Assembly: GCA_963710605.1 (NCBI GenBank)
Contig: CAVQBA010000004.1
Span: 672,001-736,000, forward strand
DNA length: 64,000 bases
Direction of reading: 5' to 3'
Source: an uncultured cyanobacterium
GTDB lineage: Bacteria; Cyanobacteriota; Cyanobacteriia; Cyanobacteriales; Cyanobacteriaceae
Shown: one piece after another, positions 3,002 to 60,177 of the stretch
Layout: each line of letters opens with the position of its first letter
Position numbering within the stretch: the first letter of the stretch is position 1
Translations under genes and position numbers: made by a program
Notes under the pieces: model-generated
What the model was told of the DNA's origin: nothing
Database searches by the model: none
The model's input: the letters and a program-made list of their open reading frames with translations, nothing else

Positions 3002-3658
3002 TTAGTTACTTGACTTACGTTTAATCATCAATTGAATAAATCGTTGCCAATTTTGAAAATCTTGCTCGCTAGGATTAGTTTTCTGCCAAGCTAAACGATT
3101 AATAATATTTTCGTGCCAGTTATCCAAACGAGAATAAAATTTTAAACTAATTCCTAATCGACAAAAAAGAGGCACAGTTGCACCGACTACAATATCAGCT
3201 AAATTAAGTCGATCGCCACCAAAATAGATATTATCATGATCTAGCTGTCGATCGAGAAATTTAAAAATAGTTTCAATCTGCTTTACTTGCTCATCATTAA
3301 AAGGTACAACCGAAGCATTGGTAAAAGATATCAGTTTTGGCACTAATTCATTCACTGTTACCATTTGAATCATCTTCGTTTTTGCTCTTTCTTGAGCTGA
3401 AGATTCTGGGCATAAACTAACAAAATGGGAATATTTCTCTTCTAAATAATCAAGAATCGCTAAAGATTCAATTAATTTAAAACCATCATCAATAATTACA
3501 GGCACATGATGAAAAGGATTTAAAGCTAAAAAATCAGGTTTATTTTGCTCTCCTCGCAGATTAACTAATACAGATTCAAAAGGTATCTGTTTTTCTAATA
3601 AACTTAACCAGACACGACGAGAAATAGGAGAAAGAGGATGATAATAAAATGTCAACAT
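3002..3658 (-). CDS. Glutathione S-transferase family protein
   Basis: NPFHHVPV...ESLAILDYL; YFGGDRLNLADI. Confidence 0.9.
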   Translation of the reverse strand: MLTFYYHPLSPISRRVWLSLLEKQIPFESVLVNLRGEQNKPDFLALNPFHHVPVIIDDGFKLIESLAILDYLEEKYSHFVSLCPESSAQERAKTKMIQMVTVNELVPKLISFTNASVVPFNDEQVKQIETIFKFLDRQLDHDNIYFGGDRLNLADIVVGATVPLFCRLGISLKFYSRLDNWHENIINRLAWQKTNPSEQDFQNWQRFIQLMIKRKSSN

Positions 3659-3677
3659 AATTTTGGTGTTTGTTGGC

Positions 3678-3695
3678 GTTACAAAATGTTAGATA
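3678..3695 (+). promoter_or_regulatory. Putative HLR1 (RpaB) site between divergent GST and USP genes
   Basis: GTTACAAA-AT-GTTAGATA direct repeat with 10-bp period. Confidence 0.45.
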
Positions 3696-53430: not shown

Positions 53431-54051
53431 ATGAATTCTACTTATCACCAAAAAAAAGCTCAAGAGAAAACAGAGCAAATATTAACAGGGGCGTTATCGC
53501 AATTTTTAAAAGATGGCTATCTAGGTGCGAGTATGGATAGAATAGCTTCAGCGGCGGGGGTTTCTAAACAAACCTTGTATAGTTATTTTGGTGATAAGGA
53601 AAGTTTGTTTAAGGCTTTAATCAAAAAGGTAACAACTGATAAGTTTCAGTTAGTTTGGTCAAAATCATTAAAAGGAAAACCTGAAGTTGTCTTAAAAAGT
53701 TTAGCTCAAAGAATTTATCTGGAAGTAAACGATGCTCAATATCTTGCTTTTGTACAAATAGTAGTAACAGAAACAAAAAATCATCCTGAAATTGGCGAAC
53801 TTTTTTTAACTAATGTAGCTAAAAGTGCGATCGATATTTTAACTAATTATCTCAAAGAATGTCCTGAACTCAATTTAAACGATCCTCAAGCGATCGCACA
53901 CATTTTTGTTAATACAATTATTCATCATATTATGACGCAAGAGATATTACAAGGTAAAGTAGTTATTCCCCTCAAGTTCGATCGTCTAATTGATAATTTA
54001 ATTAAGATGATTATCAATCACGGTCATCATACAATTAGCAATTTATGCTGA
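53431..54051 (+). CDS. TetR/AcrR family regulator
   Basis: SMDRIASAAGVSKQTLYSYFGDKESLF. Confidence 0.93.
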   Translation: MNSTYHQKKAQEKTEQILTGALSQFLKDGYLGASMDRIASAAGVSKQTLYSYFGDKESLFKALIKKVTTDKFQLVWSKSLKGKPEVVLKSLAQRIYLEVNDAQYLAFVQIVVTETKNHPEIGELFLTNVAKSAIDILTNYLKECPELNLNDPQAIAHIFVNTIIHHIMTQEILQGKVVIPLKFDRLIDNLIKMIINHGHHTISNLC

Positions 54052-54284
54052 GCGTAGTGGTCATTGAGCGAGGTCGAAATGCCAAAGTATTAGCTATTAC
54101 TTAAGTGTATTTACTCTAAGTGTATTTATTTTCTTTACATAAGTATTTTTAATGACGAAATGATAATTCAAGCTCAAATTTGCTTGTTTATACGTAGAAT
54201 TTTGTTATAATATTTTTAAATACGAATGATTAGTTTTGTGCCTAAGTATTTTGTCAATCTGAGATAGTGAGATAGTTAACAGTA

Positions 54285-54812
54285 ATGAGCCAATTTAACA
54301 ATCGTAATCTAGCCAAAAAGATAGAAAACCTACAAAAAGAAATATCTAATTCTTCTTCATTATGGGATGCAGAAGATAGCGAAAAAGAACAACAAGATAT
54401 TAGAAGGGTTAAACAAAGCTGGCGACATAAGCAGAATCGAAAATTTAAACAGGTACAAAAAAAACATCAAGAAAATAAAAGTATTAAAAAAGTAATAGTT
54501 GTCTTAATTGGGGTTGCTACAATTCCTGTGATTTTGACGACAATACCCTCTGTTTGGCAAAGTATTAGTTTAAAAATAGCTGAATATTCTACCCCTGAAA
54601 ATAAAATTGATTCTGGGGAATTAGTTACAACTCCTTGCCCTCAATATACTACTGAGCAATGTCAAAAAACGATCGAAGTAGTTAATGATGAGCCTAAAAC
54701 CATTGGTGATGAGTTAATTAATAGTCTAGATGCTGTGAGAGATTATAATCAAGAATTAAACAAAGCTATCAAGTTATCCGATGGAGAAGATGTTAATCTA
54801 GAGGATAAATAA
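54285..54812 (+). CDS. Hypothetical single-TM protein
   Basis: 175-aa ORF with one hydrophobic segment. Confidence 0.55.
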   Translation: MSQFNNRNLAKKIENLQKEISNSSSLWDAEDSEKEQQDIRRVKQSWRHKQNRKFKQVQKKHQENKSIKKVIVVLIGVATIPVILTTIPSVWQSISLKIAEYSTPENKIDSGELVTTPCPQYTTEQCQKTIEVVNDEPKTIGDELINSLDAVRDYNQELNKAIKLSDGEDVNLEDK

Positions 54813-54849
54813 TTTATTAAGCTTGATTAAATAATAGAGGTTAAAGTTG

Positions 54850-55104
54850 ATGGTAGATTCAATCATGTACCAAGAGGACGGTTATGTTGTTTTAACCAGC
54901 GATCGACCAGAAGAGTTAATGACTAAAGAAGAGTTATTATATAAACTAGAAACTGTTTTGAAACAAACCTCTAATTTACCTGCTGATGTAAGTAAGTTAA
55001 CCACAATACCCGAACAAGCAGAATATTTGCTAGAAAATTATTGTGAATTTAATCCTAATGACGATGATTATTTGCAATGGTATGTTGTGCGTTGGAATAA
55101 ATAA
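54850..55104 (+). CDS. crr7: Chlororespiratory reduction 7 (CRR7)-like protein
   Basis: SIMYQEDGYVVL...EELL..L...YLLENYCE...YLQWYVVR. Confidence 0.75.
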   Translation: MVDSIMYQEDGYVVLTSDRPEELMTKEELLYKLETVLKQTSNLPADVSKLTTIPEQAEYLLENYCEFNPNDDDYLQWYVVRWNK

Positions 55105-55161
55105 TTAATAATTGACAATTGACAATTGACAGTTGACAATTACTTAGAAATCTATTTTCAA

Positions 55162-55650
55162 ATGAATTTAATTACTGATTTTCAGATTACTTTTGCTCCT
55201 TTAGATATAAACCAAGTTTATCAATTAGCTGATAATAGTGCTAATGGTGCGGTGGTGATAATGAGTGGTACAGTCAGAGAACAAACTGAAGGTAAGGCTG
55301 TTACTTATTTAGAATATCAGGCTTATGAGCCAATGGCTGTCAAAATATTTGAACAGATAAGCGATCGAATTTCACAAACATGGCAAGATACAACTAGCGT
55401 GATTATTCATCATCGTGTCGGTAAACTAAAAATACAAGAAATAAGTGTCTTAGTTGCCGTCGGTTGCCCTCATAGACGAGAAGCGTTTGAGGCTTGTCAA
55501 TATGCGATCGATACTTTAAAACATAATGCACCTATCTGGAAAAAAGAACATTTTGCTGATGGTGCGACAAGTTGGGTAAGTATTGGTGCTTGTGAAGAAT
55601 TGACTAATAATAATTTCGTTGCCAAAAGGACGATCGATACAGATAAATAG
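55162..55650 (+). CDS. moaE: Molybdopterin synthase catalytic subunit
   Basis: GAVVIMSGTVR; LEYQAYEPMA; HRVG; PHRREAFEAC; PIWKKE. Confidence 0.95.
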   Translation: MNLITDFQITFAPLDINQVYQLADNSANGAVVIMSGTVREQTEGKAVTYLEYQAYEPMAVKIFEQISDRISQTWQDTTSVIIHHRVGKLKIQEISVLVAVGCPHRREAFEACQYAIDTLKHNAPIWKKEHFADGATSWVSIGACEELTNNNFVAKRTIDTDK

Positions 55651-55734
55651 AGTTCGTTGACAAAATAATCGATCGACTAGTGTAGTGAGGTTTTGGCTTT
55701 TAAAAGAGATATATTCGACCTTTTGCAAAATAAC

Positions 55735-55762
55735 GGTAGTCATCTGCATGGCTTAGTTAGAA
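55735..55762 (-). other. Left half of an attC-like site (R''-spacer-L''), truncated
   Basis: Minus strand TTCTAAC-TAAGC-CATGCAGATGAC; the stop codon of the upstream reading frame lies in the TAAC. Confidence 0.45.
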
Positions 55763-55886
55763 GAAACTAAAAATTACTCTATTTCTCTTGGATTTAGAAG
55801 TCATCAAATCTTTCAAGGATAACTCCACCACATTTCTTTCCCGAGCCTTCTCTACATTGTTGATTATATCTGTTTCCATAACAAGT

Positions 55887-55918
55887 GCGATCGCGCAGCG
55901 GCAGACTTCGTCTGATCG
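55887..55918. repeat. SDR5-like small repeat at a HIP1 site
   Basis: gcgatcgc-gcagcggcagacttcgtctg-atcg. Confidence 0.55.
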
Positions 55919-55925
55919 AGATCTT

Positions 55926-56148
55926 GTAGGTTGGGTTGAAGCCTCTTCAAGTTTAATACACAAACGATACATTAAATAATAGCGAAACCCAACAACCAAA
56001 CGTTTAAAATATAAAACCCTATTCTCTTCTACAAATCTAATTTTTATTTTCATTATGTTTGCTTTCCTCACGACAAAAAATGTTGGGTTTCGTTGTTTAT
56101 ATATTTTTAGAATTAAAGATAAGTTTTTTCTAGCTCAACCCAACCTAC
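55926..56148. mobile_element. REP-doublet/MITE-like element
   Basis: Terminal inverted repeats gtaggttgggttga / tcaacccaacctac; inner cgaaacccaaca / tgttgggtttcg. Confidence 0.75.
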
Positions 56149-56160
56149 TGCTACTTTTTA

Positions 56161-56763
56161 TTAGCCATGTTTATTTCTCGATATAATGTTCTTTAGTTCG
56201 GATACTGACATTGGCGGTTGTTCTAAATGAAGTATAGAGTGACAATTTGGACAGACAGGTCTTAAATCTTCGATGGGATCGATGCGGTATTCTTTCTTAA
56301 TGTCAGAAATTGGCTTGATGTGGTGTACATGAATAAAACCTTTAGCTAAATTGCCATAAATGTCTTCCAGACTTACACCGCAGACACTACAAGAATAGCC
56401 ATAATGATTTATGCAGGCGGTTCTTGCATTTCTATCTCTTTCGTATTTGTTTACGGTAATTTTGGTAACTGAACCTTCCCTATATCCTATATCAGATACT
56501 TCTTCTGGCAAGGAGGCCAAAATGGATTTCGTTAGAACGTAACCAGGAAGGCTAGAAATTTTATGCGGTATATTTGTTCTTTTACCAATTTTTATATCGT
56601 TATTCTCAAGTTCATCCTTATCTTCAATAATGACATAACCGCACCGATCAAACAGGGCGCAAGGATATTTTGTAATCCCCGCATAGAAATTACCCCAATC
56701 ACTATAAAGTGCTTGTGCGACATTCAGCGACAAGTCTTTAGCTAGCTTATTTCCTTTGCTCAA
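56161..56763 (-). CDS. HNH endonuclease (McrA-like C-terminal domain), integron-cassette-like
   Basis: YERDRNAR...CSVCG...IHVHHIKP...DLRPVCPNCHSILH; GTTAGCC just upstream and GGCTAA at the stop. Confidence 0.85.
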   Translation of the reverse strand: MSKGNKLAKDLSLNVAQALYSDWGNFYAGITKYPCALFDRCGYVIIEDKDELENNDIKIGKRTNIPHKISSLPGYVLTKSILASLPEEVSDIGYREGSVTKITVNKYERDRNARTACINHYGYSCSVCGVSLEDIYGNLAKGFIHVHHIKPISDIKKEYRIDPIEDLRPVCPNCHSILHLEQPPMSVSELKNIISRNKHG

Positions 56764-56780
56764 CTCGTAATCCTATTTTT

Positions 56781-56847
56781 GGCTAACTTATAATTGTACC
56801 GCGACCACGGTACGATACAACCTACCGCATCTGCGGTAAGATGTCAA
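56781..56847 (-). promoter_or_regulatory. attI-like site with Pc-like promoter(s)
   Basis: Minus strand TTGACA-N17-TAGGTT, then TTGTAT-N16-TACAAT-TATAA-GTTAGCC; two TACCG-N6-CGGTA palindromes. Confidence 0.6.
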
Positions 56848-56948
56848 GCTCTTCTTATTCCATTTCTGACTCTCCTTTTCTTAATCAAGTCCGACAAACC
56901 ATTCGTCTAAAACAGATGAGTCGTCGTACTGAAGAAAGCTATGGATGA
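56841..56948 (+). pseudogene. intI: N-terminal stub of an integron integrase
   Basis: Manual translation MSSSSYSISDSPFLNQVRQTIRLKQMSRRTEESYG*, resembling the IntI N-terminus ([21 protein letters not shown] in IntI1); divergent from the cassette. Confidence 0.7.
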
Positions 56949-56989
56949 TAAAATGGGGCTAAACTTGCATAAAATAGTTTTAAAACTAG

Positions 56990-57334
56990 ATGGCAAAATT
57001 ACCAGTTGTTATACTACAATCAATTTTCGATCTTCTGCAAGATTTATCAGAACTAGTTGATGATGCTACAAACGCTGAATATTTGCTTTTTGAGCGTTTT
57101 GGTGAAACGGAAGAAACAATTAATTCTTTAGATGAATTGAAAAGTGTTGCTTTAGAATCTGCTTCTCGTTATTCTCAACTTGCTAATTTACGTCTTAGAT
57201 TAGCAGAAAATCAACCGAAATTATCGAAAGAAATGTTAGCATTACTAGAAAAAACAATTAACCAAAATCAGCAGAGGATTCCTGCGATGAAACGTAGTAT
57301 TGAAGAAATCAAAATTGAAGGGGGGTTATCATGA
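56990..57334 (+). CDS. Hypothetical helical protein
   Basis: 114-aa ORF; stop overlaps the next start (ATGA). Confidence 0.65.
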   Translation: MAKLPVVILQSIFDLLQDLSELVDDATNAEYLLFERFGETEETINSLDELKSVALESASRYSQLANLRLRLAENQPKLSKEMLALLEKTINQNQQRIPAMKRSIEEIKIEGGLS

Positions 57335-57534
57335 ATCAACAATCTTTTATTCCTAATTCAGAAACTAGAAAACGTCTTGTTACTAATTTACGTCACACTC
57401 GTTTAGATTTACAAAACTTTGGGTTACAGTTAGAAGAATTATTAGCCAGTGTTGAAAAAGAAATTCGAGAACAAAAGTTAAAAAGATTACAAAAAAATCA
57501 ATCTAATACTGAAGTATCACAAGAATTGATTTAA
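57331..57534 (+). CDS. Small coiled-coil hypothetical protein
   Basis: 67-aa ORF translationally coupled to the upstream gene. Confidence 0.55.
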   Translation: MNQQSFIPNSETRKRLVTNLRHTRLDLQNFGLQLEELLASVEKEIREQKLKRLQKNQSNTEVSQELI

Positions 57535-57614
57535 AGAGGTTAAAAAAAGTTAGGGAAGGTTAAAATATTAAGTCTTTGGAACTTATACTATTTCTTAGCT
57601 TTTATTCTTAATTT

Positions 57615-58364
57615 ATGAAACGTTGGAATCTGATTTTGTCTGGCATTATATTCTCGATCGCTTCTATTTTCTTATTAAGCTCATTTTATACTTACGAACC
57701 AATTGAAGCTCAATCTAATTCCACTTATCAATATCGAGCTTTTCATAATCCTGATGGTATCGGTAAATTTTATTTAGGTCGAGAAATAGCCAAAGTAATG
57801 GGGCATCAAGAATTTCTTTGGTTAGAGCGTCCGAGTCGAGAAGCTGAGGAAAAACCCAGTGAAGCGATCGAAGCATTGAATTTAAAGCCTACTGATGTAG
57901 TAGCTGATATCGGTGCAGGTTCGGGATATTTAAGTTTTAAGATTGCCGAGAAAGTACCTCAAGGTAAAGTATATGCAGTAGATATACAACCAGAAATGAT
58001 CGATATTCTTGATTTTTTGAGTAAAGAAAATCCTGATTTACCAGTTGTGCCTGTATTAGGTAGCGAAACTTCTCCTAATCTAAAACCAGATTCGATTGAT
58101 TTAGCGATTATGGTAGATGCTTACCACGAGTTTACTTACCCTCAAGAAATGATGGAAGCATTGGTTAAAGCCCTCAAACCCAAAGGTAGAGTCGTGTTAC
58201 TAGAATACCGTAAAGAAAACCCCTTAATTGCAATTAAGGGAGTTCATAAAATGACTGAAAAACAAGTTAAAAAAGAAATGAAAGCGATCGGTTTAGAATG
58301 GGTAACTAATGAGAAATTTTTACCAACACAACATTATTTAGTCTTTGAAAAAGGTTCAACATAA
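57615..58364 (+). CDS. Class I SAM-dependent methyltransferase
   Basis: VADIGAGSGY; AVDIQPEM; VDAYHEF. Confidence 0.9.
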   Translation: MKRWNLILSGIIFSIASIFLLSSFYTYEPIEAQSNSTYQYRAFHNPDGIGKFYLGREIAKVMGHQEFLWLERPSREAEEKPSEAIEALNLKPTDVVADIGAGSGYLSFKIAEKVPQGKVYAVDIQPEMIDILDFLSKENPDLPVVPVLGSETSPNLKPDSIDLAIMVDAYHEFTYPQEMMEALVKALKPKGRVVLLEYRKENPLIAIKGVHKMTEKQVKKEMKAIGLEWVTNEKFLPTQHYLVFEKGST

Positions 58365-58436
58365 AAATAGTTTTTCTTTAAATGCTTATCGATTGAATTG
58401 AGAAAATTCGTGATTATGTCAAGTTGATTTTAATAG

Positions 58437-58597
58437 TTATAGCGAGGCACGATTTAACAGGACATTTTTAATTTTAGGTTTGCAGTTAACTTTAGTTAAC
58501 GTACATGGTTAGCCTTGAACTTAAGTTCAAGGCTCAAAGAAAATCGTTCAATAAATTGAACTAAAATTATGTCCTAATTCTCTAGTTTTAAGCCATA
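58437..58597. mobile_element. TATAGC-ended MITE-like element with internal palindromes
   Basis: ttatagcg...aggaca / tgtcct...gccata; perfect 24-bp palindrome agccttgaacttaagttcaaggct at 58511-58534. Confidence 0.55.
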
Positions 58598-58707
58598 CAA
58601 TATGTCTTGATTTAATTGTATCGGAGTAATTCATGTACAAACCCTAATATCATTTATCACTAATTACTAGAACTTGATCTTAAAACAATTCTTTTTTTTC
58701 GATTATC

Positions 58708-60177
58708 TTAGATATTCTCCTCCATCTCAGTCTCCAAAAAACCCGTATAAGCCTCCATACCATGTTCTCCAATATCCAAACCGAGGTATTCTTCCTCTGG
58801 AGAGACTCTTAAGCCAAAGAGCGACTTTAATATTGACCAAAAAACAGTACTCAAAACAACCATCGTTAAGCCAATGCTAACAATTCCAACAATTTGGGTA
58901 ATTAGCAAATTAATATTACCAGTACTAAACAGTCCAGAGATAGCCTCATCGCCAGTAATATTTATATCTGCAAATAAACCAACGGCAATAGTACCCCAAA
59001 CACCATTAACCAAATGTACTGATATAGCACCAACAGGATCATCAATTTTAATTTTATCAAAAAAATAGACTGCTAAAACAACTAAAAATCCAGCAAAGAC
59101 ACCAATGACGATCGCACTAGAATAAGATACCATTGAACAACCTGCGGTAATAGCCACTAATCCCGATAAAATACCATTAATACTTAAAGACAGATCAGGT
59201 TTTCCTGCCAAAAACCAACTAGTTAAAGTAGCAGTAATTCCTCCAGAAGCGGCGGCTAAATTAGTCGTCACCGCAATATAAGCGATATTTTCACCCACTG
59301 CCATTGTTGAACCGGGGTTAAACCCAAACCAACCTATCCAAAGAATAAAACAACCTAAAGTTGCAATACTTAAGTTATGTCCAGGTAAGGGTAATGGCAT
59401 TCCATTAGCTTGATATTTACCGATTCTAGGACCTAAAATTATTGCTCCTGTCAATGCACACCAGCCACCGACAGAGTGGACTACTGTTGAACCAGCAAAA
59501 TCAGTAAAACCAATATTTTGTAACCATCCTCCACCCCATGTCCAATGTCCAATAATTGGATAGGCGATCGCAACTAATAAAAAACTAAACAAAATAAAAT
59601 CGATAAATTTAACTCTTTCGGCTACTGCACCAGAGACGATTGTTGCCGCCGTACCAGCGAAAGCAACCTGAAATAAAAATTTTGCCGACAAAGGTACTCC
59701 AGCCCAACTAAGGGATGTATAAACCCCCTTATAAGTAGATCCCATCATTGGACTGTTATCAGCTCCATTAAGAAAAAAACCTTGTAAACCAAACAAACTA
59801 TTACCATCACCAAACATCAAGGCAAAACCTAAAGCCCAAAAAGCGATCGTAGAAATAGCGAAAACAATTAAGTTTTTAGATAGCATATTAACCGCATTTT
59901 TCCGCCGACAAAAACCAGTTTCTAGCATTGCAAAACCAGCATTCATGGTAATAACTAATACTGAAGCTATTACTACCCATAAAGTATCTAATCCAACTTT
60001 TAATTCTGAAGTTGTAATCGTAGTTAATTCTGTCGTACTTTCTTGAGCGTAAACTGCATAACTCGAACATAACAATAGAATACAGCTTAATAAAACGCAC
60101 CCTTGCCAACTATTTGAATTTTTAATTGTATTGACAATTATTTGAATTTTTCTTCTCTGAATTCGACTTAGTGACAT
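58708..60177 (-). CDS. amt: Ammonium transporter
   Basis: [45 protein letters not shown]. Confidence 0.96.

Follow-up and report, generated by a model that had tools for sequence, protein, structure and literature searches.

Decayed integrons and the locus under study

Decayed chromosomal integrons ('pseudo-integrons') are loci in which the integrase has been inactivated by truncation or rearrangement and of which the platform and cassette remain. The survey by Nemergut et al. (2008, PMC2426708) counts close to a third of all intI genes as pseudogenes and names Cyanobacteria among the integron-bearing phyla; in one portion of Cury et al. (2016, PMC4889954), integrons are found in Cyanobacteria and the loss of intI is discussed. 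The locus described here lies at positions 55735-56948 of a 64,000-nucleotide stretch, hereafter the window, of an uncultured cyanobacterium of the family Cyanobacteriaceae (assembly GCA_963710605.1, contig CAVQBA010000004.1, positions 672,001 to 736,000). It is very probably a dead chromosomal integron that holds a single cassette, the gene of an HNH nuclease. An earlier note on this DNA had proposed a decayed integron with a lost integrase and a kept nuclease cassette; the core of that proposal is borne out by the attI junctions, the homology of the integrase stub and the arrays found in relatives. The note described cyanobacteria as a group in which integrons are little studied; integrons and intI pseudogenes of this phylum are already in print. 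As a decayed chromosomal integron the locus is of a known kind, and its phylum has integrons on record.

It differs from the usual pseudo-integrons in two respects. Only 47 integrase codons are left, too few for pseudogene screens based on IntI or PF00589, and the two pieces, separated precisely between two codons, stand permuted around the cassette. The IntegronFinder classes (complete integron, In0, and cluster of attC sites lacking integrases, CALIN) are defined by the parts traced here, namely intI, attI, a cassette promoter (Pc, here a candidate) and an attC-bounded cassette, yet the locus fits none of these classes, as the window has neither a scorable intI nor an attC and the locus becomes visible only through comparison with relatives. 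With the integrons of its own order (genomes G040, G120, G113, G069 and G001) it shares the attI core GTTAG, the palindromic boxes, a divergent intI and the boundary of the HNH cassette. Those integrons keep attC sites of 62-88 nucleotides (nt), and several keep a full-length IntI, whereas the window has neither.

The history of the locus is read as follows. An integron integrase gene once began at 56841, of which only the first 47 codons survive; the GTTAG of attI joins it to the HNH cassette, whose attC has been replaced, beyond its first core, by two 64-bp repeats. Deprived of integrase and attC, the cassette would have become fixed as an ordinary chromosomal gene, no longer excisable or exchangeable. 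Three aspects make the locus noteworthy: unusually clean evidence for the cassette boundaries, a relic lying far below the reach of standard detectors, and unexplained, rotated scraps of intI. It indicates that comparing attI junctions between related genomes allows such sub-detection relics to be recognised and their cassette boundaries to be placed with single-base precision. Because relics of this sort escape profile searches, surveys relying on IntI and attC models would undercount past integron activity in Cyanobacteria. The coordinates of all features are collected in Table 1.

The genome under study comprises 7 contigs, is rated 85% complete and has a guanine-plus-cytosine (GC) content of 33%; the contig holding the locus is 1.42 Mb long. 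G001 is the sole congeneric genome compared, and G040 belongs to another family of the same order.

The integrase remnants

The earlier note had called a 35-codon plus-strand open reading frame (ORF) at the right end of the locus and taken it for an IntI N-terminus. The frame is present and contains SPFLNQVRQTIRLKQMSRRTEESY. By itself its peptide is weak evidence: against Pfam it matches the first 22 positions of PF13495 at 15.1 bits (E 0.032, cut-off 27), and a search of NCBIfam with the 35 residues gives no match. As its own profile scores fall below the curated cut-off, its homology is demonstrated through 71-82% identity to longer relics. A search of 61 related genomes with the stub retrieves two intI relics in G001, one with 82% identity (E 5e-12) and the other with 74% (E 2e-11), as well as the stub of G040 (74%). 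With the initial 35 residues of a truncated, 208-residue IntI frame in G001 the stub shares 71% identity; this frame reaches 222 bits on the integron integrase model TIGR02249 over model positions 1-184 and breaks off beside an IS1-type ORF. The full-length IntI proteins of G031 reach 460 and 489 bits on the same model (cut-off 265), and the stub aligns with them from their first conserved helix. A likeness to IntI N-termini, which the earlier note had made the test of its reading, is thus found, and the 35-codon ORF is the true N-terminus of an integron integrase.

A second piece of the same gene, overlooked in the earlier note together with the repeats that replace attC, sits beyond the cassette on the same strand, with the stub ~1 kb to its right. 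This fragment B was found by tblastn with the congener's IntI (56% identity over 25 residues). It reads LLYIVDYICFHNK, where the congener's intI copies read LYYIVDYIRFHNK and LHYIVNYICFHNK at codons 35-47. Local alignment of its DNA to the two G001 copies yields scores of 24-25, against 10.2 +/- 1.6 for shuffled sequences, none of 1000 shuffles reaching this value. The homology of the stub stops at codon 34 (position 56942) and fragment B begins with codon 35, no base being lost or duplicated between them. Only the first 47 intI codons survive, cut cleanly between codons 34 and 35. A tblastn search of the genome with three IntI proteins retrieves the stub and fragment B alone, its other matches being ordinary tyrosine recombinases at 27% identity; likewise, the genome holds no match to TIGR02249 at E <= 1e-20 and none to PF13495 over its cut-off. 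The 112 nt to the left of fragment B (55735-55846) were considered as a degenerate second copy of intI codons 1-34 and rejected, as 272-443 of 1000 shuffles score as well.

Integrases are common among relatives. TIGR02249 is matched at E <= 1e-20 in 56 of 201 sampled genomes of the order, in 20 of them above the cut-off, and many of the rest are fragments. At the moaE-adjacent locus, where the earlier note had proposed to look for an integrase in related strains, none was found, the one congener having no integron there.

The intI stub of G040 ends at codon ~41 and that of the window at codon 34, so that the two were truncated independently. G001 has two separate integron relics, each with a different first cassette: L026 (G001:C13, 4070-5388) and L027 (G001:C125, 7843-8098). 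In one of them intI is cut at about residue 205 beside an IS1-type, InsA-like ORF; in the other, ATA replaces the start codon and an in-frame TGA is present. Two different small perfect palindromic inserts occur in G040 (locus L041, G040:C103, at ~1021-1090 and ~2455-2505), one interrupting the HNH reading frame and the other following the break of the intI stub. In the window, 15 nt past the end of the stub homology, 56957-56964 reads GGCTAAAC and is followed by CTTGCATAAAA, a loose resemblance to the attI core and its neighbour (GGCTAAC TTATAA) that may be due to chance.

The attI junction and the candidate promoter

The evidence for an attI site comes from an alignment of the cassette-carrying strand of four loci, those of the window, G001:C13, G001:C125 and G040:C103. 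Between the intI start and an invariant GTTAG, ~50 nt, they all resemble one another, sharing CAATT..GTTAG and the palindromic boxes, the first of which shows paired changes in G040. Immediately after GTTAG, on the cassette side, they become unrelated. The first genes beyond this point differ as well: the HNH gene in the window, a small ORF with a GGDEF protein in G001:C13, a nitroreductase-like gene in G001:C125 and a LysE-like gene in G040. Recombination at attI is known to yield this picture, in which interchangeable genes are attached to a conserved site at one fixed base. From this comparison, the GTTAG beside the stub is identified as the attI crossover point, and attI has been kept; its conservation in four loci indicates a site with a GTT core next to the intI start, as expected of an integron. 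The palindromic boxes may represent binding sites. The GTTAGCC that the earlier note had placed at 56787-56781 is there, 17 nt rather than about 20 nt before the TTG start of the HNH gene.

The 7-mers are at chance level when taken alone and gain their meaning from the comparison with the other loci. It could be argued that the whole pattern is fortuitous, a small frame and a handful of 6-7-mers that AT-rich intergenic DNA happens to contain, since each motif alone is expected by chance and the Pfam match of the peptide stays under the cut-off. This view is refuted by homology, both that of the stub and that at the junctions, and retains practically no probability.

The minus strand carries TTGACA (56847-56842), a 17-nt spacer and TAGGTT (56824-56819), which the earlier note took for Pc. 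The pair is indeed present and overlaps the intI start codon, but it is a weak match to the consensus and was passed over by the promoter scan. Promoter-like sites are fewer in the region than expected, 3 against 5.3 +/- 2.7 in shuffles. A better-matching pair of hexamers stands at the same place in G001:C13, and the HNH gene is probably read from a promoter in the region of attI and the intI 5' end.

The HNH gene as a cassette

The assignment of the HNH gene to a cassette relies on its homologs. G040 has its homolog (52-54% identity), broken by a small palindromic insert, as second cassette behind the stub. Between it and the preceding LysE-like gene lies an 87-nt attC hairpin (86.8 bits) that begins with AGCTAAC and ends with GTTAGCC, 14 nt before the HNH start. 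The closest full-length relatives come from metagenomes. The nearest of all, L192 (77% amino-acid identity), stands in a same-strand row of five attC-like matches (30.0, 20.8, 18.7, 11.5 and 10.2 bits, with filters off). The site before its HNH gene ends with GTTAGCC, followed by a near-identical 16-nt leader and the TTG start, and the HNH stop sits in the GGCTAAC that opens an 88-nt attC-like site (3593-3680, 11.5 bits). GTTAGCC recurs in L194 (66%) together with a comparable leader and a TTG start, and the stop codon there falls within AGCTAAC. The TTG start is common to the window, L192, L193 and L194, and GTTAGCC precedes the start codon of the gene by 7-17 nt in six loci, those of the window, G040, L112 (a proteobacterial metagenome-assembled genome), L115, L192 and L194. 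The same gene with the same 5' boundary thus occurs in different arrays. The stop codon of the window gene was likewise said to lie in GGCTAA, and it does; the seventh base is T, giving GGCTAAT rather than GGCTAAC. Both the 5' boundary of the cassette and the first core of its attC are thus present in the window gene. A nuclease cassette gene has been kept, as had been proposed: the HNH gene is whole and has the 5' boundary seen in relatives.

The association with attC was also followed with a covariance model (described below) on loci carrying relatives of the HNH domain. Within the order, 5 of 29 loci are positive, and in four of them the gene is followed by a site at a distance of 10-20 nt; among HNH loci drawn from all species of GTDB, 5 of 80 are positive. 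An attC directly follows the HNH homolog in L192, L040, L087, L106 and L107, and in L087 it is found both before and after the gene. L205 presents a C-terminal fragment of IntI, an attC (49.8 bits) and then the HNH gene. The check proposed in the earlier note, whether HNH homologs sit next to attC, accordingly gives positive cases in both sets, the closest relative being part of a five-site array. The HNH gene is a real and recurrent mobile gene cassette found in the attC arrays of other bacteria, the same cassette occurring in cyanobacterial, proteobacterial and unclassified metagenome arrays.

A different origin can be envisaged for this gene. HNH nucleases are common as homing enzymes, as matches to PHROGs illustrate, and stub and HNH gene stand together in two distant genomes, the window's and G040, as if a selfish homing-type endonuclease had invaded the integrase/attI region instead of being captured as a cassette. 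In G040, however, a LysE-like cassette and a full attC separate the stub from the HNH gene, and the homologs of L087 and L192 are flanked by attC on both sides. Moreover, the HNH gene lies outside the intI reading frame and its closest solved relative is a restriction enzyme. An invasion of this kind is highly improbable, and the gene is considered below as a captured cassette.

To note, parts of a group II intron are present in G040 (L083, G040:C103, 422-747, plus strand), matching RF01998 at 43.6 bits, over the gathering score, and RF00029 at 36.2 bits, just under it. Lying on the other strand, they reach precisely up to the stop codon/GGCTAA of the HNH cassette. Group IIC-attC introns insert into the bottom strand of attC, according to part of a published account (PMC3001079), and the position of the L083 intron fits this.

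The HNH protein and its likely function

The 200-residue protein matches PF01844 at 31.5 bits (cut-off 21.4). In an alignment of 48 homologs, all 23 invariant columns are present in the window protein, including the cysteine pairs that would bind zinc (C125, C128, C171 and C174) and H147, H148, N173 and H179. The family search returned 2019 proteins at E <= 1e-5; among the best 120 of these 2019, full-length members display 40-78% identity and the few that carry an organism name are labelled cyanobacteria, Desulfatirhabdium and Abditibacteriaceae. The AlphaFold (AF2) model has a mean predicted local distance difference test score of 87 and is confident except for linker residues 85-92. By sequence, the only solved relative is EcoKMcrA (PDB 6GHC, E 0.005), and the model's best predicted fold match is the same structure (E 2.9e-3, probability 1.00, ~110 columns), followed by the HNH domains of Cap5 and Cas5-HNH. 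Like EcoKMcrA, the protein has a C-terminal HNH domain with zinc-binding cysteine pairs; unlike it (277-287 residues), it is short and possesses an unrelated N-terminal domain. This domain of ~85 residues has no family or fold match. Relatives of 250-450 residues join the same nuclease domain to other N-terminal domains. A variable N-terminal domain combined with a shared nuclease domain is the usual build of modification-dependent nucleases. The best PADLOC model is mREase_IV, for type IV methyl-directed restriction (E 2.5e-4). Taken together, these features lead us to infer an McrA-like, type IV, modification-dependent restriction nuclease with its N-terminal domain as a putative sensor.

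Small systems for restriction, of type II and of type IV, are prevalent in Vibrio cassettes, and some of the cassette defences are HNH-related, as described in part of a preprint (10.1101/2024.07.02.601686). The domain build, the likeness to McrA and these Vibrio cassettes lead to the proposal of a defence nuclease. As a compact nuclease in a single-gene cassette, the window gene resembles the small defence cassettes of sedentary chromosomal integrons. The Vibrio cassettes have been tested and belong to arrays with a working integrase, whereas the present one is known from sequence and sits on a dead platform in a cyanobacterium. The gene was probably retained for protection against phages or foreign DNA; it would be a clear case of a defence-type nuclease cassette outliving its platform and persisting as an ordinary chromosomal gene.

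Loss of attC and the dispersed repeat

Scans for attC by regular expression plus folding were too noisy in this AT-rich genome and served only to choose six clean seed sites in relatives. The covariance model was built from these six sites, all beside intI genes (G040, G120, G113 and G069), with double changes in 6 of 17 pairs. It gives 23 matches in 36 sources, some of whose loci overlap. With three exceptions, a marginal match (E 0.74) and two weak echoes (19.8 bits) of strong sites on the reverse strand, the matches beside intI lie on the strand opposite to intI. In the congener, the C13 integron has one 62-nt match (19.5 bits) after the GGDEF gene, which suggests that classical attC sites exist in the genus.

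In the window, the model run with filters off finds no site from moaE to the stub, the best score within 54500-58500 being 7.7 bits at a place not between moaE and the stub, and over the whole genome none is found among the 150 of 912 first-look candidates that were scored. The 3' attC hairpin expected of a cassette is absent from the locus, where GGCTAAT alone remains; the at least two attC sites that define a CALIN are not found, nor is a functional intI, of which only codons 1-34 and 35-47 remain. The attC of the cassette has been lost beyond its first core, and its place is taken by two copies of a dispersed repeat.

The two copies, 86 nt apart, belong to a 64-bp element (GTAGGTTGGGTTGAGC ... 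GCGAAACCCAACA) with ~45 full copies scattered over all 7 contigs. Its ends form an 8-bp inverted repeat, GTTGGGTT ... AACCCAAC, that resembles integron core sites. The leader preceding copy 1 has homologs at C7:6380-6490 and C1:184411-184522. Among 42 copies examined for orientation, 3 have no neighbouring ORF of at least 90 codons on the relevant side; in 29 of the remaining 39, the same end of the repeat faces the 3' end of a same-strand ORF, often less than 40 nt from the stop codon. The element is proposed to be a separate small mobile or 3'-end element that would have overwritten attC.

Two candidates for leftover attC were tried and rejected. The 64-bp repeat is not taken as the attC of the genus, its cores being in reversed order (GTTGGGT ... 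ACCCAAC) on either strand, its copies scattered and the integron of the congener having a classical-type attC match. On folding, only the 8-bp ends pair (z-scores of -1.16 to +0.29), and no attC-like hairpin is formed. The GC-rich leader (55884-55929) is not the remaining 3' half of an attC, since it recurs with other copies of the repeat.

A literature search with 11-mers of the repeat found no description of the 64-bp element, and only unrelated primer and virus papers are among the matches listed (the best 20 of 272). Copies elsewhere in the genome lie for example at C2:29604-31560 and C6:565196-566819; pairs of inverted copies sometimes enclose 85-650 bp, and a 30-nt short form occurs at C4:434357 and C4:590148.

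The same segment contains the second reading frame of the earlier note, which had been read as a cassette remnant. This 104-codon frame of the minus strand (55757-56071) does have its stop inside TTCTAAC, followed by TAAGCCATGCAG. It has no family match in Pfam or NCBIfam and runs antisense through intI fragment B and the dispersed repeat; it is a chance frame, neither a gene nor what is left of a cassette.

Rotated order of the integrase pieces

On the plus strand, the parts follow each other as codons 35-47, repeat, spacer, repeat, HNH gene (reversed), attI and codons 1-34. This order is thus a rotation of the one expected of an integron. Neither fragment junction shows a recombination site, a direct repeat or a core common to both. 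The arrangement could result from a circle that was opened at the boundary of codons 34 and 35 and inserted here, from two rearrangements in succession at this site, or from an error of assembly. If real, this small puzzle bears on how integron platforms break up.

In another reading, the 1.1-kb block 55847-56942 never worked as an integron here and came as a piece, either as a circle with attI, the cassette and the 5' end of intI that was opened within intI, or as foreign DNA joined by illegitimate recombination. Codons 35-47 form its left edge and codons 1-34 its right edge, both on one strand, the break having neither cost nor doubled a base, as would be expected of a circle with an intact intI 5' end opened at this point. 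The genome holds no other IntI fragment, the congener has no integron beside moaE, and neither flank of the locus finds a match in 20 relatives, all of which suits such an arrival. Conversely, the junctions lack any visible trace of recombination, no circle, empty site or second copy is seen, and the GC content equals that of the host. Furthermore, the dispersed repeats of the host within the block imply long residence, and two successive rearrangements in place give the same order. An arrival of this sort is unlikely, though it deserves to be kept in mind. The more specific idea that the loss-free cut and the rotated halves are the footprint of a reinserted circle, carrying attI, the 5' end of intI and one cassette to a site that was not an integron, is doubtful; if true, pieces of the platform, and not cassettes alone, could move as circles.

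The permuted order might also be an artefact, the assembler having, for example, collapsed a tandem repeat or wrongly joined a small circle; a simpler truncated integron would then be the true locus. The assembly has 7 contigs and is 85% complete, and the block does contain two multi-copy repeats. The junctions with unique flanks (55846/55847 and 56942/56943), however, fall outside these repeats, in a contig of 1.42 Mb, and an error of assembly is quite improbable.

Several observations weigh against the dead integron with one cassette that is preferred here. Simple decay in place does not account for the permuted intI pieces. Next to moaE, the one congener (G001) has neither integron nor integrase, and the GC content of the HNH region (0.36-0.41) is that of the neighbouring genes and the host, so that the region bears no foreign mark. 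As no attC can be demonstrated, the 3' boundary of the cassette is defined by a 6-7-nt remnant and by comparison with other loci. The attC model derives from genomes of ~50% GC and may miss sites in one of 33% GC, and the genome-wide negatives refer to an 85% complete genome, the one for attC to 150 of 912 candidates. Most relatives of the HNH domain have no detectable adjacent attC (24 of 29 and 75 of 80 loci); many of them share only the C-terminal nuclease domain, and one full-length homolog (G357/L117) has no integron context. The TTGACA-17-TAGGTT pair was not called by the promoter scan, its second hexamer matching at 3 of 6 positions. As for function, the modification dependence of the nuclease is deduced from its likeness to McrA over ~80-118 residues and from the PADLOC model mREase_IV.

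Genomic setting

From left to right on the plus strand, the locus consists of the end of moaE (55126-55650, PF02391 E 1e-39), which closes to the left of it, ~510 nt of non-coding DNA, the HNH gene on the minus strand, a 77-nt spacer and the 35-codon ORF. It is followed by two small conserved ORFs (56990-57534) and a methyltransferase gene.

Table 1. Features of the decayed integron, in window coordinates
Feature	Position	Strand	Remarks
intI fragment B	55847..55885	+	codons 35-47, LLYIVDYICFHNK; tblastn and DNA alignment against shuffles
Dispersed repeat, copy 1	55884..55994	+	45-nt leader and 64-bp unit (core 55930-55993); abuts intI fragment B
Dispersed repeat, copy 2	56082..56156	-	orientation opposite to copy 1; its start lies a few nt past the HNH stop, where attC would be expected
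GGCTAAT, remnant of the first inverse core of attC (R'')	56160..56166	-	contains the HNH stop; G040 has the same GGCTAAT
HNH nuclease gene, single cassette ORF	56161..56763	-	200 residues, TTG start, intact; PF01844 E 2e-7
GTTAGCC, attI/cassette junction	56781..56787	-	crossover expected within GTT
attI region	56788..56840	.	two palindromic boxes, 56796-56813 and 56823-56838; conserved with two G001 loci and G040
Candidate cassette promoter, TTGACA-17 nt-TAGGTT	56819..56847	-	overlaps the intI start; read from the sequence
intI stub A	56841..56948	+	codons 1-34 (to 56942) homologous to IntI, then one foreign codon and a stop

Synteny is uninformative at this place: the CRR7-moaE pair and the methyltransferase gene lie at separate places in those relatives where both were matched. 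An Rfam scan of 54000-59000 gives nothing near any gathering score.

The two ORFs at 56990-57534 overlap and encode coiled-coil-like products of 114 and 67 residues without a family match. G026 and G005 also have the pair, conserved to 79-93% at the nucleotide level but at unrelated locations; in G026 it sits between a PIN/antitoxin pair and rpmI-rplT. At the other side, a tandem run of the heptamer TTGACAA (55107-55140) lies upstream of moaE and has dozens of matching places in this genome and in relatives.

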